DNA from: Solirubrobacteraceae bacterium
Lineage (GTDB): Bacteria; Actinomycetota; Thermoleophilia; Solirubrobacterales; Solirubrobacteraceae
Direction of reading: 5' to 3'
Length of the DNA: 41,430 nt
Assembly (NCBI GenBank): GCA_036388715.1
Contig: DASVRH010000405.1
Coordinates: 1-41,430, forward strand
Shown piece after piece: positions 23,806 to 39,563 of the stretch. Positions within the stretch are counted from its first letter, which is position 1. Every line of letters starts with the position of its first letter. Below the pieces are notes generated by a model. The model was given only the letters and a program-made list of their open reading frames with translations, was not told the origin of the DNA and ran no database searches. Position numbers and translations under genes: made by a program.

Positions 23806-25410
23806 TTGCTCGATTCGCGGCCACCCGAAGGATCTCCGAGTCGCCGTAGGGCCCTCAGGGCGCTGCGTCGCCGGCTTCCCGTCTTCCTGCTCGTCGCGGT
23901 CGCCGTCCCGGCGACCTCCGTCGCGTACTCGCTGACGCAGGAGAAGCAGTACACCTCGAGCGCCGCGCTGCTGTTCCGCGACTCCGGCCTCGACCAGGCC
24001 ATCCTCGGGATCCAGACCTACCGCACGAGCGGCGACTCCGCCCGCGACGCGGCGACGAACCTCAACCTCGCGAACCTCGACGTCGTCGCCGACCGCACGG
24101 CGCGACGACTCGGCGGCACGCTCCGGCGCAACGACGTCAAGAGCCGCATGGACATCAGCCAGGAGGGGCTCTCGAACATCGTCCGCGTCGAGGCCACCGA
24201 CGCCGACCCGCGGTTCGCCGCCCGTCTGGCCACGACGTTCGCCGAGGAGTTCATCGGCTTCCGCGAGGAGTCCGACAGCAAGCGGCTGGCCGATGCGCAG
24301 CGGATCACCAAGCAGCAGTACGAGGCGCTGCCGGCGGTCACCAAGAACAGCCCGCAGGGCCGCCAGCTGCGAGACCGCTCGCAGCAGCTGGAGATCCTCG
24401 CCTCGCTGCAGACCGGCGGCGCGGAGCTCGTCCAGCGCGCCGACGTGCCGTCGAGCCCGTCGTACCCGCGGCCGCTGCGCAACGCGATCATCGGGCTGCT
24501 GCTGGGGCTGGGCCTGGGCCTGATGCTCGCCTACCTGATCGACCGCCTCGACCGCCGCATCCAGGACCCGGAGGAGATGCAGGAGGAGTTCGCCAAGCCG
24601 ATCCTCGCGACGATCCCGCACAGCGCGAAGCTCGACAAGGGCAAGGGCATCCTCGCCCAGGACGCCGCCACCGCCGAGGCCTTCCGGATGCTCCGGGCGA
24701 ACCTCCGCTACTTCAACGTCGACCGCGGCCTGCACACCGTCCTCATCACCTCCGCCGCGCCGGGCGACGGCAAGAGCACCGTCGCCGCCAACCTCGCCGC
24801 GGCGGCCGCCGCGAACGGCATGAAGACGCTGCTCGTCGAGGTCGACCTCCGGCACCCGACGATCGCCAAGGGCCTCGGCGTCCCCGCGACGCCGGGTCTC
24901 ACGCACGTGCTGGCGCGCGACGCGCAGCTGGACCTCGTCGTGCGGGCCGTGGCCGTCCAGGCCGGCGATCACGACGCGGCGTCCGGCCGCACGATGGACG
25001 TCGTCGTGTCGGGCCCGCTGCCGCCGAACCCGACCGACCTCATCGAGTCCGAGCGCATGCGCGACGTCCTCCGTCAGGCCGCGCAGGAGTACGAGTTCGT
25101 CGTCATCGACACGCCGCCGACGGCGGTCGTGCCGGACGCGATCCCGCTCGTCACCCAGGTCGACGGCGTGGTCGTGGTCGGCCGTGTCGGCAAGAGCACG
25201 CGTGAGGCGCTGGCGCACCTGCGCAAGCAGCTCGACAACCTCGACGCGCCCACGCTGGGCGTCGTCGTCAACGACGTCAGCTCGAAGGCCGCGGGCTACG
25301 CGTACGGCTACGGCTACGGCTACCACGCCGACCCGGACGCCGTCGACGCGTCGATGACGATGAACGGCACGGCCGGCCGCCCGGCCGAAGACGAGCTGCT
25401 GAAGCGCTAG
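23806..25410 (+). CDS. Polysaccharide co-polymerase (Wzz) fused to a BY-type tyrosine autokinase
   Basis: It has an N-terminal TM helix plus a Wzz-like segment, Walker A ITSAAPGDGKST, Walker A' LLVEVDLRHP, Walker B FVVIDTPP and a C-terminal Tyr cluster GYAYGYGYGYH. TTG start at 23806 has GGAGGGG upstream. Confidence 0.9.
   Translation: MLDSRPPEGSPSRRRALRALRRRLPVFLLVAVAVPATSVAYSLTQEKQYTSSAALLFRDSGLDQAILGIQTYRTSGDSARDAATNLNLANLDVVADRTARRLGGTLRRNDVKSRMDISQEGLSNIVRVEATDADPRFAARLATTFAEEFIGFREESDSKRLADAQRITKQQYEALPAVTKNSPQGRQLRDRSQQLEILASLQTGGAELVQRADVPSSPSYPRPLRNAIIGLLLGLGLGLMLAYLIDRLDRRIQDPEEMQEEFAKPILATIPHSAKLDKGKGILAQDAATAEAFRMLRANLRYFNVDRGLHTVLITSAAPGDGKSTVAANLAAAAAANGMKTLLVEVDLRHPTIAKGLGVPATPGLTHVLARDAQLDLVVRAVAVQAGDHDAASGRTMDVVVSGPLPPNPTDLIESERMRDVLRQAAQEYEFVVIDTPPTAVVPDAIPLVTQVDGVVVVGRVGKSTREALAHLRKQLDNLDAPTLGVVVNDVSSKAAGYAYGYGYGYHADPDAVDASMTMNGTAGRPAEDELLKR
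25294..25323 (+). repeat. Hexanucleotide tandem repeat (GGCTAC GCGTAC GGCTAC GGCTAC GGCTAC) encoding the kinase Tyr cluster
   Basis: Read directly from the sequence. There are three perfect consecutive GGCTAC units, plus one further perfect unit separated from them by a degenerate GCGTAC unit. Confidence 0.8.
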
Positions 25411-26192
25411 CCGCGGCGCCGGCGCAGGAACCGGCCGACCCCGCGGGGCCGTGCGATCGGCTCCGGGCGCTCGGGCAGGTCGACGCCCGCGAGCATCGCG
25501 CGCGGCGCGTGGAGCGTGTACCACCCGAGCTGCCCGAGCACGCCGGGGAGATCTTGCTCGAGGCTCTCGAACGCCGGCCGCAGCTCGGGCGGGCGCCGCG
25601 TCGCGTCGTGCGCGTCGCTCGCGACGTTGTGGACGAGGCCGCGCTCGTACAGCTCGATCGAGAAGGCCCGCACGGTGCTGCCGAACTGGCCGGCCAGCGA
25701 GGCCGCCGTCACCGAGCAGAGGATCCCGCGCTCGACGAGCTCGGCCAGGCGGTCGGCGTCGCCGATGAACGAGGGCGAGCGCTCCGGGTGGGCGAGGACC
25801 GGCCGGACGTTGCGGGTCTGGAGGTCGAAGAGCGTCTCCTCGAGCAGCTCGCCCACGGAGGTGTAGGGCGTCTCCACCAGCGCGTAGCGACCCTCTCCGA
25901 GGCACAGGGCGCCCAGGGTCTCGTCGTCGAGGTCACCGACCCGGGTGATGGCGATCTCGCCGCCCGCCACGACGCGCAGCGCCGAGCCGCCGGACGCGAC
26001 CGCGGCGTTGACCTCGGCGACGCGCTCCGGGATGAGGGACGGCGCGAACGGGTGGTCCTCGCGGATGTGCGGCGTCGCCACGATCGTCTCGATGCCGGCG
26101 GCGGCGGCGTGCCGGGCCAGGGCGAGGCTGCCGTCGAGGTCGGGCGGCCCGTCGTCGAGCCCGGGGAGGACGTGGCAGTGCAGGTCGATCAA
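25407..26192 (-). CDS. PHP-family (CpsB/YwqE-type) protein-tyrosine phosphatase
   Basis: The TTG start gives MIDLHCHVLPGLDDGP...TIVATPHI..., the signature N-terminus of CpsB/CapC phosphatases. It is convergent with the BY-kinase, with a 4-nt overlap. Confidence 0.9.
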   Translation of the reverse strand: MIDLHCHVLPGLDDGPPDLDGSLALARHAAAAGIETIVATPHIREDHPFAPSLIPERVAEVNAAVASGGSALRVVAGGEIAITRVGDLDDETLGALCLGEGRYALVETPYTSVGELLEETLFDLQTRNVRPVLAHPERSPSFIGDADRLAELVERGILCSVTAASLAGQFGSTVRAFSIELYERGLVHNVASDAHDATRRPPELRPAFESLEQDLPGVLGQLGWYTLHAPRAMLAGVDLPERPEPIARPRGVGRFLRRRRG

Positions 26193-26199
26193 CGCGCGG

Positions 26200-26889
26200 T
26201 CACGCGGCCGGCGGCGGCGTGACCCGGAAGCGCAGGACGCCGATCGCCTTCTCGGCGGGCTGCTCGTCCCACGGCCTGACGCCGAGCTCCGCGCGGCCGC
26301 CGAGCCGGCGCAGCAGCGCCGCTCGTCCCGGGGTGAGGGGGAACCGCAGCGTCGTGGTGACGCCCTCCATCGTCGGCACGCGGACGTCGCCCGACGGCGC
26401 CGCGTCGAGGCGTACGCCGTTGAGGTTCACGTAGATCTCCTGGCCCCCGGCGATGATGCCCTGCTCGGCGCCGGTCTCGTTGCGGACGCGCAGCCGGAGG
26501 ATCAGGGAGGCCGGGGTCGACGAGGCCGACAGGAGGCGCACCTGCGTGCCGCCGAGCAGCAGCGGGCGGTCCTCGCCGCCGAGCAGGAGCGTGGCGCTGC
26601 GCGTGCTGCAGCGGACGGCGTCGTCGGACGGGCCCGGGTCGGCGACCTCGCTGCACGGCGGGACGCCGCCCGCGTCCGACGAGGTCGTGGTGGGAGCCGT
26701 CGTCGTGGTCGTCCCGGGCACCGTGGCGCCCGCGGGCTCGTTGGTGCCGCTCTCGCGCGGCGGCGCGTCGTCGGCGCGGCCGAACGCAATGATCGCGACG
26801 TCCGCCGCGAGGACGAGCACGAGCACGGCGATGATCGCCTTCTCGAGCGCGGTCGCGCTGCTGAACCTCTTGCCGAATCCCGATGCCAT
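26200..26889 (-). CDS. Hypothetical single-pass membrane protein with a Thr/Pro-rich linker
   Basis: The ATG at 26889 is 3 codons inside the track's TTG start. One TM helix (IIAVLVLVLAADVAIIAF) is followed by a TTTTAPTTTS linker and a beta-rich domain. It lies upstream of the phosphatase in the same operon. Confidence 0.55.
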   Translation of the reverse strand: MASGFGKRFSSATALEKAIIAVLVLVLAADVAIIAFGRADDAPPRESGTNEPAGATVPGTTTTTAPTTTSSDAGGVPPCSEVADPGPSDDAVRCSTRSATLLLGGEDRPLLLGGTQVRLLSASSTPASLILRLRVRNETGAEQGIIAGGQEIYVNLNGVRLDAAPSGDVRVPTMEGVTTTLRFPLTPGRAALLRRLGGRAELGVRPWDEQPAEKAIGVLRFRVTPPPAA

Positions 26890-26985
26890 GGCTGCCAATC
26901 CCGACGGGGGAGCGCCGACGTTAGCCGAATCGGCCCCCCTCGCGACGGCAATGCACCTTCCGCACGTCCTTTAGGCTCCCTGCCG

Positions 26986-27933
26986 ATGCGCTCGACGATC
27001 GCCGCGGCTTTCAGCCTGCACCTCGATCTCGCGGCGGACGAGGCCATCCGGGCGCTGCGCGATGCCGGCGTGCCGGCGATCGTGCTCAAGGGGCCGTCGA
27101 TCGCGACGTGGCTGTATCCCGAGGGGACGCGCCGCTACAACGACATCGACCTCCTCGTGCCGGTGGACGGGCTGCCACGGACGCGCGCGGCGCTGGCGGG
27201 CCTCGGGTACAGCGGCGGCTACGCGCCGCTCGAGGAGGCGCGCGAGGCCCCGGGACACATCGACCACCACGCCGAGAACTGGCGCCGCCCGGGCTCGGGC
27301 ATCGACCTGCACTGGCGCATCCCCGGGATGACCGTGCCCGCCGAGCGGGCGTGGGAGCTCCTGGCCGACCACGTCGAGCCGCTGCCGGTCGGCTCGCGGA
27401 CCCTGCCGGTGCTGGACCACACGGCGCTCGCGCTGCACATCGCGCTGCACGCCGCCCAGCACGCCGGCGTCGTGGACGGGCACCCGCTCCGCGACCTCGA
27501 GCGCCTGGTGGCGACGCTGCCGGACGACGCGTGGCCGCAGGTCGAGCGCCTTGCGGCCGAGGTGGGGGCCACCGGCGCGCTCGCGGTCGGCCTGGGCCAG
27601 ACGCCCCAGGGCCGCGAGATCGCCGAGCGCCACGGCATCCGCGGCGGCATCGACGACCTCCACGTCGCGCTGAACGCCATCGGCGCGCCGCCGTCGACGG
27701 CGGGCCTGAGCACGCTCGGCCGGGGCGTGCTCGGCCGCGCGCCGGCCCGCGACGTCGCCCGCGTCCTCTTCCCGCCGCCGTCGCTGATGCGCGAGACGCA
27801 CCGGATCGCCGGGCGCGGGAGCGCCGGGCTGGCCCTCGCCTACGCCGCCCGCCTGGGCGACCGGCTGGTGCACCTGCCGCGCGCCGTCGTCGCGCTCAGG
27901 CGCGCCCGGCGGCTCCTGCGCGAGGGCGGCTAG
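26986..27933 (+). CDS. Nucleotidyltransferase family protein (PF14907-like uncharacterised nucleotidyltransferase)
   Basis: ATG at 26986 gives ...AIRALRDAGVPAIVLKGPSIATWLYPEGTRRYNDIDLLVPVDGLPRTRAALAGLGY...GIDLHWRIPG. This matches my memory of the family pattern (LKG...R...DIDLLV...LH). The track ORF starting at 25945 is a read-through. Confidence 0.75.
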   Translation: MRSTIAAAFSLHLDLAADEAIRALRDAGVPAIVLKGPSIATWLYPEGTRRYNDIDLLVPVDGLPRTRAALAGLGYSGGYAPLEEAREAPGHIDHHAENWRRPGSGIDLHWRIPGMTVPAERAWELLADHVEPLPVGSRTLPVLDHTALALHIALHAAQHAGVVDGHPLRDLERLVATLPDDAWPQVERLAAEVGATGALAVGLGQTPQGREIAERHGIRGGIDDLHVALNAIGAPPSTAGLSTLGRGVLGRAPARDVARVLFPPPSLMRETHRIAGRGSAGLALAYAARLGDRLVHLPRAVVALRRARRLLREGG

Positions 27934-28901
27934 AGCGCGGGGACGGGCTGCCGGCGCAGCCACTCGACGGTCTGCGCGACGCCCTCCTCGAGCCCGATCC
28001 GCGCCTCCCACCCGAGCAGCCGCTTCGCCTTCTCGACCGAAGGCCACCGGCGCACGACGTCGACCTCGAACGACGGGAGGTGCTCGACCTCGAAGGCGTC
28101 CGGATCCTCGCCGCAGGCGGCCCAGATGACCCGCGCGATGTCGAGCACCGTCCGCTCGTCGGCGGCGCTGACGTTGAAGTCCTCGTTCAGCCCGTTCGGA
28201 GAGGAGGTCGCGGTGACGATCCCGTCGGCGATGTCGTCGACGTGCGTCAGCGTGCGCGTCTGCGTGCCGTCGCCGAAGAGCTGGAGCGGCCGCTGGCCGC
28301 TGAGGACCTTGCGGATGACGTCGGGGACCCTGTGCGCGATCCCCGGCTCGGGCTCGGGCATCTCGCCGGGCCCGTAGGCGTTGAACGGGCGGCAGATCGT
28401 GAAGGGCAGGCCGTGCTCGTCGTGCGCGGCGCGGCAGTAGACCTCGCCGGTGAGCTTGCTGAACCCGTACGCCGAGCGCGGGATCGGCGTGTCGTGGATG
28501 TGCTCCTCGCTCGTGGGGTACTCGGTGGCGCGCTCGAAGACCATGCTCGAGCTCACGTACACGAAGCGCTCGGCGCCGTGGTCCAGCGAAGCGCGGATCA
28601 CCGCGTTGTAGAGCGCGTTGTTGACCTCGGTCAGGGTGTGGGGGAGGCGGTGGAAGTTCGCGATGCCGCCGACGATCGCCGCGAGGTGGATGACGTGGGA
28701 GCAGCCCTGGGTCGCCGCCCGCGCCTCGGAGATGTCGCGCAGGTCGCCGCGGTGCACCTCGCAGCCCTCGCGCATCCACTGGGGCGCCTCGCGCTGGTCG
28801 GAGACGCGCACGTCGAAGGCGGGGTCGCGCAGCAGCCGGCGCACGACGGCGGCGCCGATCGTGCCGGCTCCGCCGGTGACGAGAACCCTGCTCACGGCCA
28901 T
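27930..28901 (-). CDS. NAD-dependent epimerase/dehydratase family protein
   Basis: MAVSRVLVTGGAGTIGAAVV..., with YGFSK (YxxxK) and FGDGTQTRTLTHVDDIADG. Confidence 0.85.
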   Translation of the reverse strand: MAVSRVLVTGGAGTIGAAVVRRLLRDPAFDVRVSDQREAPQWMREGCEVHRGDLRDISEARAATQGCSHVIHLAAIVGGIANFHRLPHTLTEVNNALYNAVIRASLDHGAERFVYVSSSMVFERATEYPTSEEHIHDTPIPRSAYGFSKLTGEVYCRAAHDEHGLPFTICRPFNAYGPGEMPEPEPGIAHRVPDVIRKVLSGQRPLQLFGDGTQTRTLTHVDDIADGIVTATSSPNGLNEDFNVSAADERTVLDIARVIWAACGEDPDAFEVEHLPSFEVDVVRRWPSVEKAKRLLGWEARIGLEEGVAQTVEWLRRQPVPAL

Positions 28902-28930
28902 CGAGGCTAGCCATATACTCGCCGCCGCGA

Positions 28931-29563
28931 ATGACCGAGGCCCGCCCTGACCTGGTGGAGATCGAGGGCCTGGGGCGGAGCTTCGGCGCCCGCGAGGTCA
29001 TCCGCCGGCTGGATCTGCGCGTGCCCGCCGGCGCCCGTGTCGCGCTCCGTGGCCCGAACGGCGCGGGCAAGTCCACGGCCCTGCGCTGCGTCGCGGGCAC
29101 GCTCGCGCCCACGCGCGGGACGGTCGCCATCGACGGCTTCGCGGCGGGCAGCGTCCCCGCCCGGCGCCGGATCGGCGTCTCGTTCGCCCAGGAGCGCTCG
29201 TTCCACATGCGGCTGAACGGCCGGGCCAACCTGATCTTCTTCGCCCAGCTGCACCTCGGCAGCCGCCGCGCCGCGGTGCGCGAGGTGGACGCGCTGATCG
29301 AGGAGCTCGACCTGCGGGAGATCGCGCCCCGCCGGCTCGACCAGTGCTCGACCGGCATGGTCCAGCAGCTCGCGATCGCGCGGGCGCTGAGCGCCGACCC
29401 CGACGTGCTCCTGCTCGACGAGCCGACGCGGTCGCTCGACAAGGAGGCGATCGCGCGGTTCTGGGCGGCGATCGACCGGCGCCCGGACGCGGCGGTGCTC
29501 ATCGCGACGCACCGCGACGAGGATCTCGAGAGGTGCGGGAGCATCGTTGACTTCCCGACCTGA
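28931..29563 (+). CDS. ABC transporter ATP-binding protein
   Basis: Walker A is GPNGAGKST, the signature-like motif is CSTGMVQQLAIARAL, and Walker B is LLLDEPTRSLD. Confidence 0.9.
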   Translation: MTEARPDLVEIEGLGRSFGAREVIRRLDLRVPAGARVALRGPNGAGKSTALRCVAGTLAPTRGTVAIDGFAAGSVPARRRIGVSFAQERSFHMRLNGRANLIFFAQLHLGSRRAAVREVDALIEELDLREIAPRRLDQCSTGMVQQLAIARALSADPDVLLLDEPTRSLDKEAIARFWAAIDRRPDAAVLIATHRDEDLERCGSIVDFPT

Positions 29564-30365
29564 GCTGCCGCGCCTGGGCGCCATCGCCGCCTTCACGCGG
29601 CGGGATGCGTCGAACGCCTCCTCCTACCGGCTCGCGATCGCTCTCGATCTCGTCCTCAGCGTGCTGCCGCTGGTCATCTACTTCTACATCTCGAAGCTGT
29701 TCGACATCCCGCCGAGCGCCGCGCTGCAGAACGCGCCGTCGTACTTCGCGTTCGTCGTCGTCGGGCTCACGCTCGCGACCGTCGTGCAGGCGGGCACCAT
29801 CGGCATCGCGGCGACCCTGCGCCAGGAGCAGTTCACCGGCACGCTGGAGGCGATGGGCGTCAAGCCCGTGACGCCGATCGAGATGGCGCTCGGGATCGCT
29901 TCCTATCCGTTCCTGTTCGGCACGCTGCGCGCGACGCTCTACCTCGTGCTCGCGGCGACGGTCTTCGGCGCCGACTTCTCGGACGCGAGCGTGCCCGGCC
30001 TGGTGATCGGGTTCGCCGTGACCGGCCTCGCCCTCGTGGCGATCGGCATCGCGGTCGCCGCCGTGGTCTTCGTCGTGAAGCGCGGCGAGGTCTTCAGCAA
30101 CATCACCGTCTCGTTGCTCGTGATCCTCGGCGGCGCGTACTTCCCCGTCACGATCTTCCCGGCCGGCGTCGAGGGGGCGGCGAAGGTCGTGCCGACGCGC
30201 TTCGCCTTCGAGGGTCTCCGATCCGCGCTGTTCACGGGGACGGACTGGGCCGCGCCGATCCTCAAGCTGCTCGTGTTCGGTGCCCTCGCGCTGCCGTTGG
30301 CCCTGCTCTTCTTCAGCTGGGCGCTCGACCTCGCGAAGCGACGTGGCTCCCTCGGGCAGTACTGA
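29547..30365 (+). CDS. ABC-2 type transporter permease
   Basis: Six predicted hydrophobic helices. The start overlaps the ATPase gene by 17 nt. The TTG start is as given in the track. Confidence 0.8.
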   Translation: MTSRPELPRLGAIAAFTRRDASNASSYRLAIALDLVLSVLPLVIYFYISKLFDIPPSAALQNAPSYFAFVVVGLTLATVVQAGTIGIAATLRQEQFTGTLEAMGVKPVTPIEMALGIASYPFLFGTLRATLYLVLAATVFGADFSDASVPGLVIGFAVTGLALVAIGIAVAAVVFVVKRGEVFSNITVSLLVILGGAYFPVTIFPAGVEGAAKVVPTRFAFEGLRSALFTGTDWAAPILKLLVFGALALPLALLFFSWALDLAKRRGSLGQY

Positions 30366-31536
30366 GCAGCCGCTGCGCCCCACGCCGCTCGAGGTCGCGA
30401 GCGGCGTGGTCGTCGGCGAGGCGCCGGCGGCCGCCCCGCCCGACGCGGGCGGCGGGCTGAGCCCGCGACAGGCGCTCGAGCGGCTGGTGCTGCCGGCGTT
30501 GCTCCGGCCGCCGTGCCTCGTGAGCTTCTCCGGCGGTCGCGACTCGTCGCTCGTGCTGACGATCGCCGCGCATGTGGCGCGGCGCGAGGGGCTGCCGCTC
30601 CCGAGCCCCATCACCGTCCGGGTCGCCGACGCGCCCGCCGCGCAGGAGGACTGGCACCAGCAGACGCTCCTGCATCACCTCGGCCTCACGGACCAGTGGA
30701 TCAGGCTCGACGTCCCGCAGGGGGAGTTCGACTGGGTCGGCCCGGTCGCGGGACGAGTGCTGCGGCGGCACGGGCTCCTGTGGCCGCCCAACGCGTTCTT
30801 CCACGCGCCGCTCTTCGAGCAGGCGCGCGGCGGGTCGCTGCTCACCGGTGTCGGCGGCGACCAGATGATGGCGACGTGGCGCTCGGCACGGGCGATGCAG
30901 GTGGTGTCGGGTCGCGCGCGGCCGGCCCCCCGCGACGCCCTGCACGTCGGCCTCGCCTTCGCGCCGCGGGCGGTGCGAGCCGCGGTGCGGCGACGGCGCG
31001 ACGACGTCCCTTCGTGGCTGCGCCCGCCGGTGGCACGCGACGTCATGCGCAGGCGCGCGGCCGAGGACGCGAGCGAGCCCCGCCGCTGGGACCGCCGCCT
31101 GCCCTGGGTCGAGCGGCGGCGGATCCTCGCCGCGACACGCTGGAGCCTCGCGCTGATCGCGGCCGACTCCGGCACGCACGTGGCGCACCCGCTTGCCGAC
31201 CCGCTCTTCGTCGGCGCGCTGGCCCGGGCCGGCGGCGCCGGCGGTCTCGGCGACCGTCGCGCGATCATCAACATGCTTCTCTCCGACCTGCTCCCCGACG
31301 TCCTGCTCGGCCGCGCCGACAAGGCGTTGTTCCAGGAGGTGTTCTTCAGCGCGCCGTTCCGGGAGTTCGTGCGGACGTGGGACGGCCGCGGCGTCGACCC
31401 CGCGCTGGTGGACGTCGAGCGCCTTCGGGCGGAGTGGGCGCAGGAGGTGCCGCACTCCCGCACCGCGCTGGTGCTGCAGGCGGCCTGGCTCTCAGCCCAG
31501 GGCGGCGAGGCGGTCGACCGTGGCATCGAGCGCTGA
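30343..31536 (+). CDS. Asparagine-synthetase-domain (PP-loop, lasso-cyclase-like) protein lacking an N-terminal glutaminase-type domain, paralogue 1
   Basis: PP-loop is LVSFSGGRDSS. AsnB C-terminal blocks are HVAHPLADPLF and LLPDVLLGRADKALF. Similarity to paralogue 2 already covers PLEVASGVVVG, so the start must lie upstream of about 30385. GTG 30343 is chosen here and GTG 30280 is also possible. Confidence 0.8.
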   Translation: MAPSGSTEQPLRPTPLEVASGVVVGEAPAAAPPDAGGGLSPRQALERLVLPALLRPPCLVSFSGGRDSSLVLTIAAHVARREGLPLPSPITVRVADAPAAQEDWHQQTLLHHLGLTDQWIRLDVPQGEFDWVGPVAGRVLRRHGLLWPPNAFFHAPLFEQARGGSLLTGVGGDQMMATWRSARAMQVVSGRARPAPRDALHVGLAFAPRAVRAAVRRRRDDVPSWLRPPVARDVMRRRAAEDASEPRRWDRRLPWVERRRILAATRWSLALIAADSGTHVAHPLADPLFVGALARAGGAGGLGDRRAIINMLLSDLLPDVLLGRADKALFQEVFFSAPFREFVRTWDGRGVDPALVDVERLRAEWAQEVPHSRTALVLQAAWLSAQGGEAVDRGIER

Positions 31537-32367
31537 CCAGTCCCTCGGGCGCGTCAGCTCGTAGGCCGGGAGGCTCACGAGGTCGAGCAGGCCGACGGGA
31601 TCGTCGCCGGGCAGGATCGCCGAGCGCTGCGCGACGAGCGGAGCGAACCGCTCGGAGATCGGGACGGGCCGCAACGCGACGTCGTCGCCCCACGACAGCT
31701 TGATCCACCCGCCGAGGGGCACCGCCGCGGGGACCGGTGGCACCGCCAGGCGGCGACGCGTCGCGTCGCGCACGAGCGGCGCCGCGCCGTCGCCCGTCAG
31801 CCGCTCGGCGGCCTCCGGGCGCAGGTCGATCGCACGCGGCCCCGCGAGGGCGTCGCGACCCTCGATCACGAGGACATCATCGGTCACGATCGGCGCCCCG
31901 GCGAGGTGCAGCGCGGCCATCAGCGTGCTCTTCCCGGCCTCCCGCGCGCCGATCACCGCCCACGCCCTGCCGCCCGCGACGAACGCGCCCGCGTGGAGGC
32001 TCTCCCGGCCCGCCCAGCGCGCGAAGACCGCGCCCACCGGCGCCAGATAGGGGTGGACGAGCTCGTCGTCGGCGATCTCGTACGGGGTGACGAACGTGGC
32101 CGAGCGATCCTGCCGACGCAGGACCAGCGATCCGCCGCGCAGCAGCGGGAACGTCGCCTCGTCGCTGCCGATGTGGATCGGCAGCGACCCATCTCCGGTG
32201 CGGCGGTCGATGTCGATACCTCCCCAATCCTCACCAGCGCTGTTGAGAAGGCCTGAATCGACGTCACTCCGGATTTGCAACCCGTAGGCGCCTCGTAGTA
32301 GCGTGCCGACATTCTTCTGCTGCGGCGACGTCGCAGGAGGCCGCCAAGACTTCCAATCAGGAGGCAC
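31492..32367 (-). CDS. HPr-kinase-like (HprK-related) P-loop kinase
   Basis: VIGAREAGKSTLMAAL is the P-loop, followed by APIVTDDVLVI as in HPr kinase/phosphorylase relatives. Start is uncertain. GTG 32367 would sit 1 nt from the divergent peptide ATG, and its first codons CCT CCT are the antisense of that gene's AGGAGG. TTG 32280 is the only other in-frame candidate. Confidence 0.75.
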   Translation of the reverse strand: MPPDWKSWRPPATSPQQKNVGTLLRGAYGLQIRSDVDSGLLNSAGEDWGGIDIDRRTGDGSLPIHIGSDEATFPLLRGGSLVLRRQDRSATFVTPYEIADDELVHPYLAPVGAVFARWAGRESLHAGAFVAGGRAWAVIGAREAGKSTLMAALHLAGAPIVTDDVLVIEGRDALAGPRAIDLRPEAAERLTGDGAAPLVRDATRRRLAVPPVPAAVPLGGWIKLSWGDDVALRPVPISERFAPLVAQRSAILPGDDPVGLLDLVSLPAYELTRPRDWSALDATVDRLAALG

Positions 32368-32368
32368 G

Positions 32369-32545
32369 ATGCCGAAGGCAGAGTATTACGCGCCGTCGCT
32401 CACGACACTCGGGTCCGTGCAGGACCTGACCCTGGGCTCCGGTGGTGGTTTCCCCGACACCTGCGACCTCGCGGTCGGCTCGGTGATCGGCGCCGATCCG
32501 TGCTCCGGTCAGCCGGCGCCGGGCGGCATCGGGACGAAGCCGTAG
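32369..32545 (+). CDS. Lasso-type RiPP precursor peptide (58 aa)
   Basis: AGGAGG lies 4 nt upstream of the ATG. The product is MPKAEYYAPSLTTLGSVQDLTL-GSGGGFPDTCDLAVGSVIGADPCSGQPAPGGIGTKP. The leader fits YxxPxLx3Gx5Tx exactly, and the core starts with Gly1 and has Asp8. Confidence 0.8.
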   Translation: MPKAEYYAPSLTTLGSVQDLTLGSGGGFPDTCDLAVGSVIGADPCSGQPAPGGIGTKP

Positions 32546-32550
32546 GCAGT

Positions 32551-32571
32551 TCCGGCCGCGAACCGGCCGGA
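32551..32571 (+). promoter_or_regulatory. Intercistronic hairpin between the precursor gene and the downstream cyclase-like gene
   Basis: TCCGGCCG cgaac CGGCCGGA forms an 8-bp stem with a 5-nt loop. It starts 6 nt after the precursor stop and ends 6 nt before the ATG at 32578. Confidence 0.55.
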
Positions 32572-32577
32572 CACGCA

Positions 32578-33732
32578 ATGCAGGACGTGGCGGCGGGGAG
32601 ACCCGCCGTTCGTCTGTCCGGACTCGAGATCGCGACGCATCTCGTCTTCGGCCGTGCGCGACACACGCGCCTGCCGGAGGCGCGCGCGGAGTCGCCGCGC
32701 GAGGCGCTGGAGGCGGTCGTCCGCGAGGCGCTCGTGCGGCCGCCGTGCGTCGTCAGCTTCTCGGGCGGCCGCGACTCGTCGGTCGTCCTCGCGGTCGCCG
32801 CGCACGTCGCTCGCCGCGAGGGGCTCCCTCTGCCGGTCCCCGCGACGATCCGCGCGCCCGCGGTGGCCGGGAGCGTCGAGGACGACTGGCAGGAGCGGGT
32901 CGTCGCGCACCTGAGGCTGCCCGAGTGGCAGCGCGAGGTCGTCGACGACCAGCTCGACTTCGTCGGGCCCGTCGCCCGGGACGTCCTCGCGCGGCACGGA
33001 CTGCTGTTCCCCGCGCAGGTCCACTTCCACGTCCCCCTCCTGCGCCACGCGTCCGGCGGCACGCTGCTGACCGGCGCCGGCGGCGACGACGTGCTGGAGG
33101 CGGGCCCGCGGGCGGTGCTCGCCTTCGCCTGGCGCCGGTTCCGCGCGGGTCATCAGCGCACGGCGGTCACGCCGCTGATCGCGGCCGCGCCGCGGAGGGC
33201 CCAGGTCGCGTACGTACGGCGACGGCGCCGGCTGCGCGCCCCCTGGCTGACCGACCGGGCGCACCGGGAGCTCGACGATTCCATCGCCGAGCAGATCAGG
33301 CCGCCCGGCGCGGCGGCCGGGATGCGCTGGACGTACGAGCAGCGCTGGCTCGAGCTCGTCAAGGACAGCCTCGGCCTGCTCGCCACCGATGCGGGCGCCG
33401 CGATCGCCCACCCGGTCGCCGACGGCCGCTTCGTCGCCGCGCTGGCGGGCGCGGCGGGATGGGCCGGGCCGGGCGGGCGCTCGCGGCTGCTGCCGCGTCT
33501 GGCGGGCGACCTCCTGCCCCGCGACGTCCTGCAGCGCCGCGACAAGACGGCCTTCGCCGGCGTCTACTGGAACCGCCACACGCGCGAGCTGCTCGAGACG
33601 TGGCAGGGCGAGGGCGTCGACACCGACGTCGTGGACGTGGAGGCCCTGCGCGAGACGTGGGCGTCCCGCCACGTCAACATGGCGACCGCGCTGCTGCTGC
33701 AGTCAGTCTGGCTGGCCCGCCGCGGCGGCTGA
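32578..33732 (+). CDS. Asparagine-synthetase-domain (PP-loop, lasso-cyclase-like) protein lacking an N-terminal glutaminase-type domain, paralogue 2
   Basis: VVSFSGGRDSS, AIAHPVADGRF and LLPRDVLQRRDKTAF are colinear with, and highly similar to, the 30343-31536 product. ATG 32578 is chosen so the gene does not overlap the precursor gene. Confidence 0.8.
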   Translation: MQDVAAGRPAVRLSGLEIATHLVFGRARHTRLPEARAESPREALEAVVREALVRPPCVVSFSGGRDSSVVLAVAAHVARREGLPLPVPATIRAPAVAGSVEDDWQERVVAHLRLPEWQREVVDDQLDFVGPVARDVLARHGLLFPAQVHFHVPLLRHASGGTLLTGAGGDDVLEAGPRAVLAFAWRRFRAGHQRTAVTPLIAAAPRRAQVAYVRRRRRLRAPWLTDRAHRELDDSIAEQIRPPGAAAGMRWTYEQRWLELVKDSLGLLATDAGAAIAHPVADGRFVAALAGAAGWAGPGGRSRLLPRLAGDLLPRDVLQRRDKTAFAGVYWNRHTRELLETWQGEGVDTDVVDVEALRETWASRHVNMATALLLQSVWLARRGG

Positions 33733-34989
33733 GGCGTCCGGCGCCATGGCCGCGATCTCCGCGGCGTAGCCGAACACCTGCGCGGCGCCGAAGCAGTTCC
33801 ACGGGTCGACGACGAGCGCCTCCGGCGCCGCGAGGCGCGAGATCTCTCGAAGAGGACCGGCTCCACAAAATTCTCTGTGGTTCGTCGCGACGACGACGGC
33901 CTCGGCGCCCGCGACGGCCTCGTCGAAGGTCTGGGTCGGCGTGGGGACGTGCGGGTCGTGCACCGCGACCTCGACCAGCTCGCGCTCGAGCAGGCGCACG
34001 AGCTTGTGGGCCAGCGAGTCGCGCTCGTCGTCGGTGTCGGCCTTGAAGGCCAGGCCGAGCACGGCGACCTTGCGGCCGCGCAGCGCGCCGAGGCGGCGCT
34101 TCATGCCCTCGACGAGGAAGAGCGGCACGCTCTCGTTCACGCGCGAGACGGCGAGCAGCATGCCGGGCGCGTGCGAGCGCTCCTCGCTGAACGTGAAGTC
34201 CTTGCGCAGGCAGGTGCCGGCGGTGAAGCCCGGCATCTTGATCCCGCCCCTGGGGTAATCGTGGTTGATGAGGTCGATGACCTCGAAGACGTTCGCCTCG
34301 TACTGCTCGCAGTCCATCATCAGGAGGTTGGGCAGCGCGAACGTCGTGTAGCGCAGGATGTTGGTCCAGATCTTCGCGAGCTCGGCCTGGACGGGCGTGG
34401 TCTCGACGACGTCGGACTCGTAGACGTCGAACAGCTCGCGGCACACCTGCGTCGAGCGGTCGCCGACGCCGCCGACGATCTGCGGCAGCGAGTCGATCTC
34501 CTCGAAGAACTTGCCGGCCGCGATGCGCTCGGGGGCGTGCGAGACGAAGAGGTCCTCGCCGACCTTGAAGCCGAGCTTCGACTCGAGGTAGCCGGCGACG
34601 AACTCGGTCGTGCCCGGGGCGATCGTCGAGCGCAGGACGACGGAGTGGCCGGGCTCGAGGACCGGCAGGAGGTCGTCGAGGGCCGAGCGGATGTCGCGCA
34701 TGTCGATCTCGATGTGCGAGAACGACGGCGTCCCGATCGTGAGGATGATGTGCTTGGCCCGGGCGGCGTCGGCGACGCGGTCGGAGGCCTCCAGCCCGCC
34801 GGAGGCGTGCACGCGGCCCATGACCTCGTCGCCGCCGGTCTCCTCGAACGGCATGCGGCCGTCGCGGACGGCGGCCAGCCGCTCGGGGTCGCGGTCGACG
34901 CCCACGACGCTCAGGCCGCGGTCGGCGAGCGACAGGGCGAGCGGCAGGCCGACCCGGCCCAGCCCGATGACGGAGACGTCGCGGTCCAC
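33703..34989 (-). CDS. Nucleotide-sugar dehydrogenase (UDP-glucose/GDP-mannose dehydrogenase family, WecC-like)
   Basis: VSVIGLGRVGLPLA is the Rossmann motif, GFTAGTCLRKD holds the catalytic Cys, and LGLAFKADTDDERDS is the C-terminal domain motif. GTG start at 34989. Confidence 0.9.
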   Translation of the reverse strand: MDRDVSVIGLGRVGLPLALSLADRGLSVVGVDRDPERLAAVRDGRMPFEETGGDEVMGRVHASGGLEASDRVADAARAKHIILTIGTPSFSHIEIDMRDIRSALDDLLPVLEPGHSVVLRSTIAPGTTEFVAGYLESKLGFKVGEDLFVSHAPERIAAGKFFEEIDSLPQIVGGVGDRSTQVCRELFDVYESDVVETTPVQAELAKIWTNILRYTTFALPNLLMMDCEQYEANVFEVIDLINHDYPRGGIKMPGFTAGTCLRKDFTFSEERSHAPGMLLAVSRVNESVPLFLVEGMKRRLGALRGRKVAVLGLAFKADTDDERDSLAHKLVRLLERELVEVAVHDPHVPTPTQTFDEAVAGAEAVVVATNHREFCGAGPLREISRLAAPEALVVDPWNCFGAAQVFGYAAEIAAMAPDASAAAAGQPD

Positions 34990-35000
34990 GTCCCGTCAGG

Positions 35001-35828
35001 CTATCGACGGGTGCTGCTGTACTGGCGCGCGAAGCCCGCGACGAAGCGCGGGTTGTAGCGCGCGTAGCGGCGCCACAGGCGCCGCGGCTCCTTCGAGAGG
35101 CGGTAGACCCACTCGAGGCCGATGTTCTGCATCCAGGTCGGCGCCTGGGGCACGAGGCCGGCGTGGAAGTCGAAGGCGGCGCCGACGCCGATCAGCATGG
35201 GGGCGTCGAGGAGCGGGCGCATCTCGCGCATCCAGATCTCCTGCTTGGGCTGGCCGGTGCCGACCCACACGACGTCCGCCTTGGAGCGGTTGATGTCGTG
35301 GACGACCCAGTCGCGCTCCTCGTCGGAGAGCGGCCGGAAGGGCGGGGAGTAGCCGCCGACGATCTGCAGGCCGGGGTAGCGGCGGCGGAGCTTGAGCGCG
35401 AGCTCGACGAGCGCGCCCTGGTTGCGGCCGCCGTAGAGGTACATGCGGGCGCCGGTGGTCGCCGAGCGCTGGCAGTACTTGGCCATCAGGTCGGGGCCGT
35501 ACACGCGGGTGGCCTGCTCGTGGCCGAGCGCCTTGAGCGCCCAGACCAGCGGCTGCCCGTCGGGGACCACGAGGCTGACGTCGGCGACGGCGTCGCGCGT
35601 GGCCTGGTCCTCCTGGGCGACCATGACGAGGTGCACCGCGGCGGCGCTCAGCGTCGCCCGGCCGCCCGCGGCCACGGTCTGGTCGATCCAGTCCATCGTC
35701 CGCTCGTAGTCGGCGAGCGCGAGCGGGACGCCGAGGACCTCGGCGGTGGCCGGCTTGCCGGCGGCGCCGTTCTGATGGCCGTTGACGGCCTGGTCGGCGC
35801 GCGTGATGTCGATGAGCGGCTGGTTCAT
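35001..35828 (-). CDS. WecG/TagA/CpsF-family glycosyltransferase (GT26)
   Basis: VLGVPLA..., VVPDGQPLVWA, YLYGG, VVWVGTGQPKQEIWM and IGVGAAFDFHAG are characteristic of GT26. ATG 35828 is preferred; the track start at 35912 adds 28 aa. Confidence 0.85.
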   Translation of the reverse strand: MNQPLIDITRADQAVNGHQNGAAGKPATAEVLGVPLALADYERTMDWIDQTVAAGGRATLSAAAVHLVMVAQEDQATRDAVADVSLVVPDGQPLVWALKALGHEQATRVYGPDLMAKYCQRSATTGARMYLYGGRNQGALVELALKLRRRYPGLQIVGGYSPPFRPLSDEERDWVVHDINRSKADVVWVGTGQPKQEIWMREMRPLLDAPMLIGVGAAFDFHAGLVPQAPTWMQNIGLEWVYRLSKEPRRLWRRYARYNPRFVAGFARQYSSTRR

Positions 35829-35980
35829 AGGGGGATCGCCGGTACAGAACGGGCCGCCGGCGGAAAAGTCGCGTCCTTGCTGCGGGACGAACGGCAAGAG
35901 CGCGCGGGACATCCAAGAAGTCGCGCTCGCCTCGTAGCATAGCCGCCCATGGCGCCGCCCAAACGCAAGCGATCTTGCGC

Positions 35981-37033
35981 ATGACGGCGCTCGTCGACGA
36001 GGGCTTCTGGGCGGGGAGAAACGCCCTTGTCACCGGACACACCGGATTCAAGGGCGCCTGGCTGGCGCTGTGGCTCGAGTCGCTGGGCGCCTCCATGCAC
36101 GGCCTCTCGCTCGACCCTCCCTCGACGCCGTCGCTGCACGAGCTGGCCGGCCTTCCCGCCTCCCCGCGCATCGACGTCCGCGACGCCGGCGCGGTGCGCG
36201 ACGCGGTCGCCTCCGCCCGGCCGTCCGTCGTCTTCCACCTCGCCGCGCAGCCGCTCGTCCGCCGCTCCTACGCCGAGCCGGCCGAGACGTTCGCCGTCAA
36301 CGTGCAGGGGACGGCGCACGTCCTCGACGCCGTCCGCGCGGTGGAGGGCGTCGAGGCGGTCGTCGTCGTCACGTCCGACAAGTGCTACGAGCCGCACGAG
36401 GGCGAGTTCGGGCACCGCGAGACGGATCCTCTCGGCGGCCGCGATCCGTACTCGGCCTCGAAGGCGGCGGCGGAGGTGGTCTGCGCCGCGTACCGGTCGT
36501 CGTTCGGGCTGCCGCTGGCGACGGCGCGTGCGGGCAACGTCATCGGCGGCGGTGACTGGGGCGCCGACCGGCTGCTGCCCGACGTCATGCGGGCGGCGCA
36601 GGGCGGAGGGGCGGTCGAGCTGCGCAGCCCCTCGGCGGTGCGGCCGTGGCAGCACGTGCTCAACCCGCTCGCCGGCTACCTCGTCCTCGCCCAGGCGCTG
36701 GCCGGCGACCCGGAGGCGTTCGCCGACGCGTGGAACTTCGGGCCGGCGGTCGACGACGCGCTGACGGTGCGCGAGCTGGTCGGGCGGATCGGGATGCTGT
36801 GGGGCAGCGAGATCCCCGTCGCGACGCAGCCCGGCGAGCACCCGGCCGAGACCGCGACGCTGCGGCTCGACTCGACCCGCGCGCGGGTGCGGCTGGGGTG
36901 GCGCCCGGTGTGGGACCTCGACGAGGGGCTGCACGCGATCGTCGACTGGTACCGGGCCTACGAGCGCGGCGCCGACCTGCGAGAGACCTCTTTGGCGCAG
37001 ATCGCGGCGTACGAGGCCGCCGCGCGGCGTTAG
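35981..37033 (+). CDS. rfbG: CDP-glucose 4,6-dehydratase
   Basis: FWAGRNALVTGHTGFKGAWLALWLESLGA is the signature N-terminus. Also present are VVVTSDKCYE, DPYSASKAAAE, RAGNVIGGGDW and VRPWQHVLNPL. ATG 35981 is 2 codons inside the track's TTG start. Confidence 0.9.
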   Translation: MTALVDEGFWAGRNALVTGHTGFKGAWLALWLESLGASMHGLSLDPPSTPSLHELAGLPASPRIDVRDAGAVRDAVASARPSVVFHLAAQPLVRRSYAEPAETFAVNVQGTAHVLDAVRAVEGVEAVVVVTSDKCYEPHEGEFGHRETDPLGGRDPYSASKAAAEVVCAAYRSSFGLPLATARAGNVIGGGDWGADRLLPDVMRAAQGGGAVELRSPSAVRPWQHVLNPLAGYLVLAQALAGDPEAFADAWNFGPAVDDALTVRELVGRIGMLWGSEIPVATQPGEHPAETATLRLDSTRARVRLGWRPVWDLDEGLHAIVDWYRAYERGADLRETSLAQIAAYEAAARR

Positions 37034-37046
37034 GCTCGCGCCCCTC

Positions 37047-39563
37047 ATGCTCCGCCGCGCCCTCGCCGTCGCGTTCCTCGCGACGCTCCTCCTCGCCCCT
37101 CCCGCCTCCGCGATCGACTTCGTCGACGAGGACTTCGCCGCCGGCTTCGAGGAGGTGGTGGTCGCCGAGGGCCTCAACGAGCCGACCGGGATGGCGTACG
37201 GACCCGGTGGCCGGCTCTACGTCGCCGAGCGCGAGGGGCGCGTGCGGGTCGTCGAGCCGGACGGGACGCTGGCCCCCGACCCCGTCGTCGACATCTCCGA
37301 CCACGTCAACTCGTACTCCGAGCGCGGGCTGCTCGGGATCGCGGTCGACAACGACTTCGCCTCCCACCCGTTCCTCTACCTGCTGTACACGTACGAGCAC
37401 GACGGGGAGGACCCGTTGGCGGCGAAGACGTCCCGCCTCACCCGCGTGCGCCTCGACGAGCTGAACCCCTCGGTCGCCTACGCCCCGTTCGAGGAGACGG
37501 TGCTGATCGGCGACGACGACGACGACGGCGACGAGCTCTGCGACATCGGCGAGGTGTGCATCCCGGCCGACGACGAGTATCACTCGATCGGCACCGTCCG
37601 CCAGGGTCCCGACGGGACGCTCTACGCGGGCAGCGGGGACTCCAACGCGACCGGGGACTTCTGGGCGCAGTCCGACGCGATGCGCCCGTTCGACCCTCAG
37701 AGCCTCGCCGGCAAGATCATGCGCGTCGATCGCGACGGCGACCCGGTCGAGCCCTCCTTCTGCACCGACCCCGCGCAGCCGTGCTCGCACGTCTTCGCGA
37801 TGGGCTTCCGCAACCCGTACCGCTTCAGCGTCCGCGGGAACGCGGATCTCATCGTCGGCGACGTCGGGTCCTCGCAGTACGAGGAGGTCAACCGCGTGCT
37901 CCCCGGGCGCGACCACGGCTGGCCGTGCTGGGAGGGCTACGGGTGGACGGCGATCTACCAGGGGCGCGAGGAGTGCCAGGAGCGCTACGCCCTCACTCCG
38001 CCGCCGTCGAACCTGACCTCGCCGTGGATCGTCTACGGCGGCAGCCGCGCGGTCGGGCAGGGCGCCGCGGTCTACGCGGGCCCGACGTACACGGGCGCGA
38101 CCTTCCCGCCGAAGTTCGCCGCGCAGCAGCGCTTCTTCTACGGCGACACCGTGCGCGGGTGGCTGAACACCGCGTACTTCGACGGCGGCGCGGTGCGGAC
38201 GAAGTCGTTCGCGACCGGCGTGAACTACGCGGTCGAGATGATCCAGTCGCCGGAGGGCGACGTCGTCTACAGCGAGTACGGCGGCGCGATCAAGCGGATC
38301 CGCTTCGCGTGCGCGCCGGACGGCACCGCGTGCAACAAGACGCCGATCGCGCGCCTCTCCGCGATCCCCGACCACGGCGAGGACGTCGACGAGATCACCT
38401 TCTCGGCGGCCGGCAGCTCCGACCCAGACGGCGACGCCCTGACCTACAGCTGGGACTTCGACGGCGACGGCGACTTCGAGCTCACCGGGCCCGACGCCAC
38501 GCCGCCACCGCAGTCCTTCGCGCCCGGCCGCTACGTCCCGCGCGTCGTCGTGGGTGACGGCTCGCGCACCGCCGTCGCGCAGCAGGTCGTCTTTCCCGGC
38601 TACGACCCGCCGTCGGTCACGATCGACCCGGTCGACGAGGAGTTCCGCGCCGGCGAGTCGGTCGACGTGAGCGGCTCGGCGAGCGATCCGAACACGCCGG
38701 CCCAGGCGCTCGACCCGCTCGTCTGGAAGGTCACGCTGCTGCACAATGACCACGTCCATCCGCGCGGGCGCTGGGTCGGGCCGACCGCGACGTTCAAGAC
38801 GCTCGACAGCCACGACGCCGACTCCGGCTACCTCGTCGAGCTGACCGCGCGCAACGCGATCGGGATGACGGCGACGAAGTCGGTCCAGCTGCATCCGAAG
38901 ACGGTGAAGGTGACGTTGGCCAGCGACCCGCCGGGGGCGCGGCTGCTCTACGGCGCGCGGGAGGGCTGGGCGCCGTTCACGATCGACGCGGCGGTGAACT
39001 ACACGACGCCGCTGACCGCCGACTACTCCGTCTACTACGAGGGCGAGTGGCTGCCGTTCTCGCACTGGGAGCACACGCCGTCGCAGCAGTTCTCGAACGT
39101 GAAGGTCCCGGACCACGACGTCACGTACACCGCGGTCTACGGCCCGCGGAGCACGAAGGAGCGCCCGCCGGGAGAGCTCGCGCCGCCGCTCGAGCCGCCG
39201 GGCCCGCCGATCGGCCCGTTCCAGCCGCCGCGCGGCCCGCGGGGGACGCTGGGCGCGTTCCGCGGTCGTCGCGTGAGCGGCACCGCCACCGCTCCGCTCG
39301 GCGTCCGCCGGGTGCGGATCGCGCTGGCCCGCCGCGCCGGCCGCCGCTGCCGCCTCCTCCGCGCCGGGCGCTTCACGAAGCCCACCCGCTGCTCGCGCCG
39401 GACGTGGACGAAGGCGAGGCTCGGCCGCGGCAAGGCCACCCGCGCCTGGTCGCTCACCCTCCGCAAGCCGCTCCGCCCGGGCCGCTACACGATCGTCGTC
39501 CGCGTCGAGGACATGGCGGGCGCCACCGCCAACCGCTCCTTCGCCCGCCGCCTCACGCGCTAG
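37047..39563 (+). CDS. Secreted PQQ-type soluble sugar dehydrogenase beta-propeller + PKD + conserved middle module + Arg-rich C-terminal domain
   Basis: Signal peptide is MLRRALAVAFLATLLLAPPASA. GSDH-like motifs are GLNEPTGMAYGPGGRLYVAEREGRVRVV, ERGLLGIAVD, LAGKIMRV and FAMGFRNPYR. The PKD block reads ITFSAAGSSDPDGDALTYSWDFDGDG. It is a paralogue of the N-terminal two thirds of the 13190-16873 product. Confidence 0.9.
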   Translation: MLRRALAVAFLATLLLAPPASAIDFVDEDFAAGFEEVVVAEGLNEPTGMAYGPGGRLYVAEREGRVRVVEPDGTLAPDPVVDISDHVNSYSERGLLGIAVDNDFASHPFLYLLYTYEHDGEDPLAAKTSRLTRVRLDELNPSVAYAPFEETVLIGDDDDDGDELCDIGEVCIPADDEYHSIGTVRQGPDGTLYAGSGDSNATGDFWAQSDAMRPFDPQSLAGKIMRVDRDGDPVEPSFCTDPAQPCSHVFAMGFRNPYRFSVRGNADLIVGDVGSSQYEEVNRVLPGRDHGWPCWEGYGWTAIYQGREECQERYALTPPPSNLTSPWIVYGGSRAVGQGAAVYAGPTYTGATFPPKFAAQQRFFYGDTVRGWLNTAYFDGGAVRTKSFATGVNYAVEMIQSPEGDVVYSEYGGAIKRIRFACAPDGTACNKTPIARLSAIPDHGEDVDEITFSAAGSSDPDGDALTYSWDFDGDGDFELTGPDATPPPQSFAPGRYVPRVVVGDGSRTAVAQQVVFPGYDPPSVTIDPVDEEFRAGESVDVSGSASDPNTPAQALDPLVWKVTLLHNDHVHPRGRWVGPTATFKTLDSHDADSGYLVELTARNAIGMTATKSVQLHPKTVKVTLASDPPGARLLYGAREGWAPFTIDAAVNYTTPLTADYSVYYEGEWLPFSHWEHTPSQQFSNVKVPDHDVTYTAVYGPRSTKERPPGELAPPLEPPGPPIGPFQPPRGPRGTLGAFRGRRVSGTATAPLGVRRVRIALARRAGRRCRLLRAGRFTKPTRCSRRTWTKARLGRGKATRAWSLTLRKPLRPGRYTIVVRVEDMAGATANRSFARRLTR

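Follow-up and report, generated by a model that had tools for sequence, protein, structure and literature searches.

A 58-codon open reading frame (ORF) in a 41,430-nucleotide contig of a Solirubrobacteraceae bacterium (DASVRH010000405.1; the whole stretch is hereafter the window) is a genuine gene with a lasso-family leader. On balance we favor reading it as the precursor of a peptide made on ribosomes and then modified post-translationally (RiPP), one of the kinase- and nucleotidyltransferase-associated lasso family, of the paeninodin/pseudomycoidin type, whose leader is removed by factors encoded elsewhere. The product is most likely a Gly1-Asp8 macrolactam peptide with putative lasso threading. 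The locus both resembles kinase-associated lasso clusters in its working and derives from them evolutionarily, with four departures: it lacks the RiPP recognition element (RRE) protein B1 and the leader peptidase B2, its cyclase homologs are short, there are two of them, and its core has no C-terminal Ser.

The precursor gene, A, runs from an ATG at 32369 to a stop codon at 32543–32545 on the forward strand. A Shine-Dalgarno AGGAGG (32359–32364), read directly from the sequence, lies 4 nt upstream. The first 22 codons (32369–32434) specify the leader MPKAEYYAPSLTTLGSVQDLTL, and the remaining 36 codons, with the stop (32435–32545), specify by translation the core GSGGGFPDTCDLAVGSVIGADPCSGQPAPGGIGTKP. 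Counted back from Gly23, the leader holds Tyr-17 (Y6), Pro-14 (P9), Leu-12 (L11), Gly-8 (G15) and Thr-2 (T21), the YxxPxLx3Gx5Tx motif. The core contains Asp8, Cys10, Asp11, Asp21, Cys23 and Lys35 and ends in TKP. A sequence-only reading of this DNA had described the ribosome-binding site, the motif spacing and the 36-residue core in just this way, with an end at 32545 that includes the stop codon.

Because the window is 72% G+C and open frames are therefore abundant, we chose codon-position GC as the coding test. The precursor frame gives 0.64/0.59/0.86 for the three positions, the pattern of real genes in the window, with a third-position value weaker than the 0.9–0.98 of adjoining genes. 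The pattern is missing from the other forward frames. An antisense ORF can be ruled out, as the sole antisense frame with coding-like third-position GC contains two stops. A 5' end of the downstream cyclase gene C2 can likewise be dismissed (third-position GC of that frame 0.60, no sequence conservation), as can an upstream GTG start at 32303, since orthologs keep the ribosome-binding site and a Met-Pro start.

The peptide is also conserved. Five independent metagenome contigs, drawn from separate samples in ENA, Logan and JGI, carry a gene call for the identical 58-residue peptide. Related loci and peptides (our L and P numbers) supplied about ten distinct orthologs: P0121–P0125, P0246, P0247 and those of L001/L129, L130 and L131. 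Nei-Gojobori ratios of nonsynonymous to synonymous substitution (dN/dS) for the window precursor are 0.26 against L125, 0.35 against L001 and 0.36 against L127. The context CAGGAGGCACG-ATG is common to the window and the orthologs of L129 and L131, and is CAGGAGGAGG in L130. The precursor is a genuine, conserved gene under purifying selection.

The leader Y, P, L, G and T-2 are invariant across all full-length orthologs. All orthologs keep Gly1 and a ring-acceptor Asp, at position 8 or, in the two orthologs with a one-residue insertion (L130 and P0247), at position 9. They likewise keep the core block GFPD.C(D/E).A.G...DPC.G, including both Cys, and a Lys 2–5 residues from the C-terminus, while the rest of the tail varies. 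Asp/Glu11 and Asp21 are invariant as well, and a C-terminal Ser occurs in none of the ten or so orthologs. The Gly1-Asp8 pair, the two Cys and the near-C-terminal Lys, all singled out in the sequence-only reading, are conserved among its orthologs.

The leader, to judge by profile matches, belongs to a large actinobacterial lasso-leader family. An initial hidden Markov model (HMM) of ten leaders, run against all fetched loci, revealed between one and three small ORFs, their leader being YE(A/P)PxLxxLG(S/T)xxxLT(L/Q), in nearly every cyclase-related locus. A second HMM, trained on 94 precursors from other lineages with the window's own subclade excluded, was run on the 566 six-frame segments of the window. 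It matches only the precursor ORF (E 6.2e-9; runner-up E 1.1), which bears out the earlier assignment of a lasso-type leader. Comparison with the curated NCBIfam model NF033521 ('lasso RiPP family leader peptide-containing protein', lasso_leader_L3) gave a divided answer. The window peptide scores 18.1 bits (E 0.0019), narrowly below the 19-bit cutoff, whereas its orthologs in L001 (25.5 bits), L127 (29.9) and L130 (22.8) pass, so that NF033521 by itself would name these orthologs and not the window peptide. The cyanobacterial lasso model NF033528 matches the window peptide weakly (E 0.003).

Two Asn-synthetase-like genes, which we call C1 and C2, flank the precursor on the forward strand. C1 (30406–31536, 376 residues, alternative GTG start at 30280) matches PF00733 with E 1.1e-6, and C2 (32578–33732, 384 residues) with E 1.3e-11, its domain beginning at residue 41. 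Both retain the PP-loop SFSGGRDSS, and of the 83 residues conserved in at least 90% of the cyclase family, C1 keeps 75 and C2 keeps 82. A search for C2 homologs returned 877, of about 390–410 residues. The alignment of the profile of this short-cyclase family with E. coli AsnB starts only near residue 204, and the Jiangella member best matches the macrolactam cyclase model NF033561 over positions 192–530 of 561 only. The family therefore has no counterpart of the N-terminal domain found in canonical lasso cyclases. Neither C1 nor C2 reaches an NCBIfam lasso-cyclase model. The sequence-only reading had missed that the cyclase homologs are truncated and that there are two. A role for them as polysaccharide amidotransferases was rejected: they have no glutaminase domain, and members of their family occur alongside PqqD, B2, HprK-like genes and precursors.

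Between C1 and the precursor, and divergent from the latter, lies K (31492–32280, reverse strand), an HPr-kinase-like P-loop kinase of 262 residues whose start at 32280 agrees with independent gene calls. Its match to TIGR04352 is weak (E 4e-5). The window protein has all of the family-invariant residues, namely a His (H76/H96), the Walker-A Lys K117 and the Asp-Asp pair D134-D135, and an AlphaFold model (predicted local distance difference test, pLDDT, 90) matches the folds of phosphoenolpyruvate carboxykinase (PEPCK) and HprK/P. From their motifs, C1, C2 and K all look intact. The precursor lies between an HprK-like gene and an Asn-synthetase-like cyclase gene, as the sequence-only reading had it. 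The order C1-K-A-C2 recurs in all six independent loci with this peptide type.

The cassette begins upstream with N, an NTP_transf_5 nucleotidyltransferase of 315 residues (26986–27933, forward; PF14907, E 1.8e-28), a family also present in the cassettes of L003, L021, L125, L127, L129 and L130. It continues with an epimerase (27930–28901, reverse) and an ATP-binding cassette (ABC) exporter made up of an ATPase (28931–29563, forward; Pfam ABC_tran) and an ABC-2 permease (29547–30365, forward; Pfam ABC2_membrane). By tblastn, homologs of the ATPase were found in 52 of 82 related loci and of the permease in 38 of 82. Downstream of the precursor stop, a GC-rich hairpin with an 8-bp stem and a 5-nt CGAAC loop (32551–32571, forward) precedes the C2 start. 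Hairpins of differing sequence occupy the same place in five of six orthologous loci; the fold energy does not differ significantly from that of shuffled sequences (z -0.26, in GC-rich sequence), leaving weak evidence for a real element. A scan for promoter and terminator consensus sequences found nothing, and neither did Rfam and tRNA models run on the window.

The sequence-only reading had reasoned from contacts of the leader with an RRE and a leader peptidase, and here it did not hold: neither is encoded in the window, although sister loci have both. Pfam found no PqqD/RRE protein (B1) and no transglutaminase-like B2 among the predicted proteins of the 41 kb. Family-specific HMMs applied to six-frame translations of the window and L001 gave best E-values of 2.6 for B1 (PqqD-like, PF05402) and 0.64 for B2 (PF13471 / NF033537), and neither protein was found within 10 kb on either side in L001, L125, L129 or L131. 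The same B-less gene order is seen in L001/L129, L125/L126 and L131. Domains fused into or hidden in adjoining genes are ruled out by the negative six-frame searches and by the mere ~40 nt between permease and C1.

PqqD and Transglut_core3 are present in the sister loci L127/L128 and L130, which share the C1-K-A-C2 core, and in L130 both genes sit precisely between the permease and C1. The loss of B1 and B2 in the window is therefore derived and clean. The L130 B2 passes NF033537, and its PqqD best matches lasso PqqD chaperone models. C1 is orthologous to the cyclase adjoining B2 in L127 and L130, and C2 finds its best L127 match in the gene that occupies the C2 position, so the C1/C2 duplication predates the loss.

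Other branches of the family also contain B-less loci. L043, L044/L045 and L080 have a precursor and a short cyclase with no detectable PqqD or B2 within 8 kb on either side; an HprK-like gene was detected in L043–L045 and not in L080 (17 kb fetched). From these gene contents, loss or relocation of B1 and B2 seems to have happened more than once.

A separate observation concerns a membrane-anchored or secreted protein of the window (26200–26889, reverse), with an N-terminal hydrophobic segment, a Thr/Pro-rich linker and a beta-rich domain. It bears the motif RLRVRN.T.AEQG.IAGGQE and has no Pfam match. Paralogs occur at L125:11359-11940 and 3808-4548, L131:681-1253 and L129:15343-16023; in L125 and in L131 one such paralog directly follows C2. 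Among all fetched loci the family is found only in those without B1 and B2, a co-occurrence among close relatives only. The protein could be an immunity factor, a receptor or a processing accessory.

How might this peptide mature? In the scheme we favor, the 22-residue leader would be cut off after Thr-2/Leu-1, between Leu22 and Gly23. A short cyclase would then adenylate the Asp8 side chain and join it to the Gly1 amine, closing an 8-residue macrolactam. A Cys10-Cys23 disulfide in the tail would compensate for absent bulky plug residues, and the ABC-2 transporter would export the product. Leader recognition and cleavage would still be carried out, most likely by B1 and B2 from a paralogous cluster elsewhere in the genome. 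We favor processing in trans because Tyr-17, Pro-14, Leu-12 and Thr-2 are invariant in every B-less lineage, at a synonymous divergence of about 0.5–0.6. Paralogous clusters within one genome are common in the family: L058 has two within 17 kb, as does L060.

Set beside the hallmarks of lasso clusters, the window has the leader motif and a Gly1 with an Asp within positions 7–9, but no B2 and no RRE. The candidate macrolactam synthetases flanking the precursor, both PF00733 members, keep the PP-loop but have no N-terminal domain. As for the kinase subtype, the HPr-kinase His-Lys-Asp-Asp residues, the nucleotidyltransferase and the ABC exporter are all there, and the C-terminal Ser is not. Because B2, an RRE in cis and the C-terminal Ser are absent, we count the locus as an unusual variant of a lasso cluster.

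Several points weigh against this reading. Beyond the absence of B1 and B2 from the window and from the 10 kb on either side in L001, L125, L129 and L131, both cyclases are missing the N-terminal domain that characterized lasso cyclases have, and literature searches found no characterized member of the short-cyclase family. The tail has no aromatic or Arg plug, and the core lacks the C-terminal Ser that is the known lasso-kinase substrate site. Moreover, the gene product and its lasso chemistry are predictions from sequence.

The main competitor, which we regard as possible though doubtful, dispenses with B proteins altogether: the locus would be self-sufficient, a housekeeping protease would trim the leader, a short cyclase alone would make the macrolactam, and the leader motif would serve the cyclase or the kinase. 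There is precedent for such economy. Pseudomycoidin is made in vivo from its precursor, or from the core alone, with PsmC only, B1, B2 and even the leader being dispensable, and a natural C, A, K cluster without B genes was noted in Stanieria (PMC6993621). The B-less architecture has been stable over at least four diverged lineages of the subclade (the window, L001/L129, L125/L126 and L131) and recurs in the branches of L043, L044/L045 and L080, within the 8 kb searched on either side. Characterized kinases act on the precursor rather than on the mature lasso (PMC9266682), which makes a leader-reading enzyme other than B1 plausible. However, the native pseudomycoidin cluster does contain B genes, and Tyr-17, Pro-14, Leu-12 and Thr-2, which are known to work with B1 and B2, are invariant in B-less lineages; the simplest explanation is that these proteins still act. 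By comparison, a decaying relic, whose peptide is no longer matured after B1/B2 loss, is highly improbable. The loss itself, the much lower conservation of cassette genes (59–77% identity) than of flanking polysaccharide genes (80–95%) among the window, L001 and L125 and the near miss of the window peptide at the curated leader cutoff are what such decay might leave, but the peptide evolves under constraint (dN/dS 0.26–0.36), its ribosome-binding site is kept, the frames and catalytic motifs of C1, C2 and K are intact across all B-less lineages, and none of six assemblies shows a frameshift.

The paired cyclases raise a further possibility, that C1 makes the Gly1-Asp8 ring while C2 forms a second amide, from the near-C-terminal Lys to Asp/Glu11 or Asp21, or amidates a carboxylate. 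The invariant Lys, Asp/Glu11 and Asp21, the uniform C1-K-A-C2 order in six independent loci, the retention in both proteins of the PP-loop and nearly all family-invariant residues, and a duplication older than the B1/B2 loss are all compatible with this; L026 and L039, which also have two cyclases, likewise have a Lys near the C-terminus. Nevertheless we judge a doubly cross-linked product unlikely. No lasso cyclase is known to modify a Lys side chain, a Lys of this kind is absent from L018 and L101 despite their two cyclases, and C1 and C2 could instead form a heterodimer or be redundant. The Lys occurs in 5 of 9 precursors from two-cyclase loci and in 11 of 81 from single-cyclase loci, but these cases are very few and phylogenetically non-independent. 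Slightly less likely again is the most elaborate version, a self-sufficient pathway without RRE or leader peptidase, set within a polysaccharide locus, in which two synthetase-domain-only cyclases would each install one amide cross-link (the Gly1-Asp8 ring and a bond from the C-terminal Lys to Asp/Glu11 or Asp21), giving a bicyclic, disulfide-braced 36-residue product that the kinase and the nucleotidyltransferase possibly also modify.

Returning to the favored lasso reading, we place the cassette with the paeninodin/pseudomycoidin type because its gene set A, C, K, N and D (the exporter) agrees with theirs apart from B1 and B2 (PMC6993621, PMC9266682, PMC8498205). The pseudomycoidin cluster of Bacillus pseudomycoides comprises psmA, C, K, B1, B2, N and D (PMC6993621). 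It shares with the window a precursor, an Asn-synthetase-like cyclase, an HprK-like kinase, an uncharacterized nucleotidyltransferase and an ABC exporter, a likeness judged by gene type. It differs in encoding B1 and B2, in lacking the window's pair of short cyclases, and in a precursor with a C-terminal Ser that is first phosphorylated and then glycosylated, whereas the window core finishes with TKP. In pseudomycoidin, bulky modifications at the C-terminus may stand in for steric plugs (PMC6993621). The paeninodin-type kinases PadeK, ThcoK and SyanK have the same conserved His, Lys, Asp and Asp as the window kinase, act on the precursor and use the C-terminal Ser as substrate site (PMC9266682). 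The window subclade has no C-terminal Ser and comes from Actinomycetota, not Firmicutes or Proteobacteria. Closest in lacking B proteins is the predicted cluster of Stanieria cyanosphaera PCC 7437, a cyclase, a precursor and a PsmK-like kinase (PMC6993621). Likened by description only, it differs from the window in having a single cyclase and a glycosyltransferase.

The core itself invites comparison with better-known lasso peptides. Its Cys placement resembles that of the class IV lasso peptide LP2006, which reportedly has a disulfide pattern with two tail Cys, and its tail recalls pandonodin, said to be a lasso peptide with a very long C-terminal tail. To our knowledge, a 36-residue core would exceed the characterized long-tailed examples. 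The sequence-only reading had called this length unusual, which is true against characterized lasso peptides but not within the peptide's own family, where 94 distinct cores span 11–39 residues with a median near 24.

That family is broad. An alignment query fetched 80 genome loci, where a genome scan with the single C2 protein as query had no match; a metagenome scan returned distant relatives only (37–59% identity) and no member of the window subclade. Most loci come from metagenome-assembled genomes of Thermoleophilia (Solirubrobacterales, Gaiellales) and Acidimicrobiia; cultured Nocardioides, Jiangella and Phytoactinopolyspora contribute a few. In its usual form the cassette runs through an ABC ATPase, an ABC permease, NTP_transf_5, PqqD (B1), a transglutaminase-like B2 of about 120–150 residues, a short cyclase, an oppositely oriented HprK-like gene and then at least one precursor. 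PqqD is present in 69 of the 80 loci, B2 in 56, an HprK-like gene in 74 and a recognizable precursor in 63; 45 have all four. Because the loci carry these genes, and because the L130 B2 and PqqD and the Jiangella cyclase match lasso models, we consider the family to be lasso-type. Ser is the last residue of 41 of the 94 cores and lies within the last three of 77; the number of Cys is exactly two in 34.

Taken alone, the precursor call is ordinary; the value of the locus lies in its conserved B-less, two-short-cyclase architecture, a useful natural test case. If active, it would be a natural, evolutionarily stable lasso-type biosynthesis without dedicated RRE or leader peptidase and with cyclases reduced to the synthetase domain. 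It would then make testable what minimal machinery can pre-fold and close a lasso, and what role a conserved leader plays once its usual readers are gone. The two cyclases and conserved Lys/Asp pairs turn the second cross-link into a concrete hypothesis for mass spectrometry. Cluster-finding rules that require a B protein would miss B-less members such as this one. With hundreds of cyclases and about 94 distinct precursors in the fetched loci, the short-cyclase actinobacterial family is, as far as our searches show, uncharacterized, and, coming mostly from uncultured Thermoleophilia and Acidimicrobiia, it seems experimentally unexplored. Literature searches on lasso peptides in Thermoleophilia, truncated lasso cyclases and RREs hidden in kinases returned nothing relevant.

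Two further observations concern family members outside the window subclade. Many precursors (L002–L119; for example L012:10046-10216 and L021:10027-10200) share the core motif xDKxxG.SDGFTF.G...N(A/C)S(P/S). Across the family, the position that follows the predicted Thr-x cleavage site varies widely; it is often taken by Gln, Thr, Arg, Lys or Asp, unusual choices for lasso position 1. The cleavage site, or else the N-terminal specificity of the short cyclases, differs from that of characterized systems. In Jiangella asiatica, a set of PqqD, two precursors, a short cyclase, B2 and an HprK-like gene has genes for sulfate activation directly upstream (L071:4303-7038); their products are a CysQ-like phosphatase, a CysD-like PAPS_reduct protein and a CysN-like GTPase. 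The arrangement is a hint that this cluster involves sulfation or draws on a phosphosulfate donor.

The cassette of the window is embedded in a large polysaccharide locus that encodes a Bac_transf priming transferase, Wzy-like proteins, a flippase, a Wzc-type tyrosine kinase, a CpsB phosphatase, glycosyltransferases, many epimerases, UDP-glucose dehydrogenase and WecG. Its position there is the same in the window, L001 and L125, and it evolves much faster than its surroundings: between the window and L001 or L125, flanking polysaccharide proteins such as the Wzc-type kinase, CpsB phosphatase, UDP-glucose dehydrogenase and WecG are 74–95% identical (23806–41429), and cassette proteins just 59–77%. 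In L127, the distant sister locus that contains B1 and B2, a Wzy_C protein is 47% identical to its window homolog, and an ECF-type (extracytoplasmic function) sigma factor and a small hypothetical protein (window 6494–6979 and 2849–3313, both forward) have homologs of 58% and 61% identity (L127 1–458 and 11821–12192). Because these homologs extend to so distant a locus, the link between the cassette and the polysaccharide/ECF-sigma neighborhood is older than the B-less subclade. The polysaccharide locus also includes two very large predicted proteins (13190–16873, reverse, and 37047–39563, forward) in which a glucose/sorbosone dehydrogenase beta-propeller is joined to PKD domains, the former having seven FG-GAP repeats in addition.

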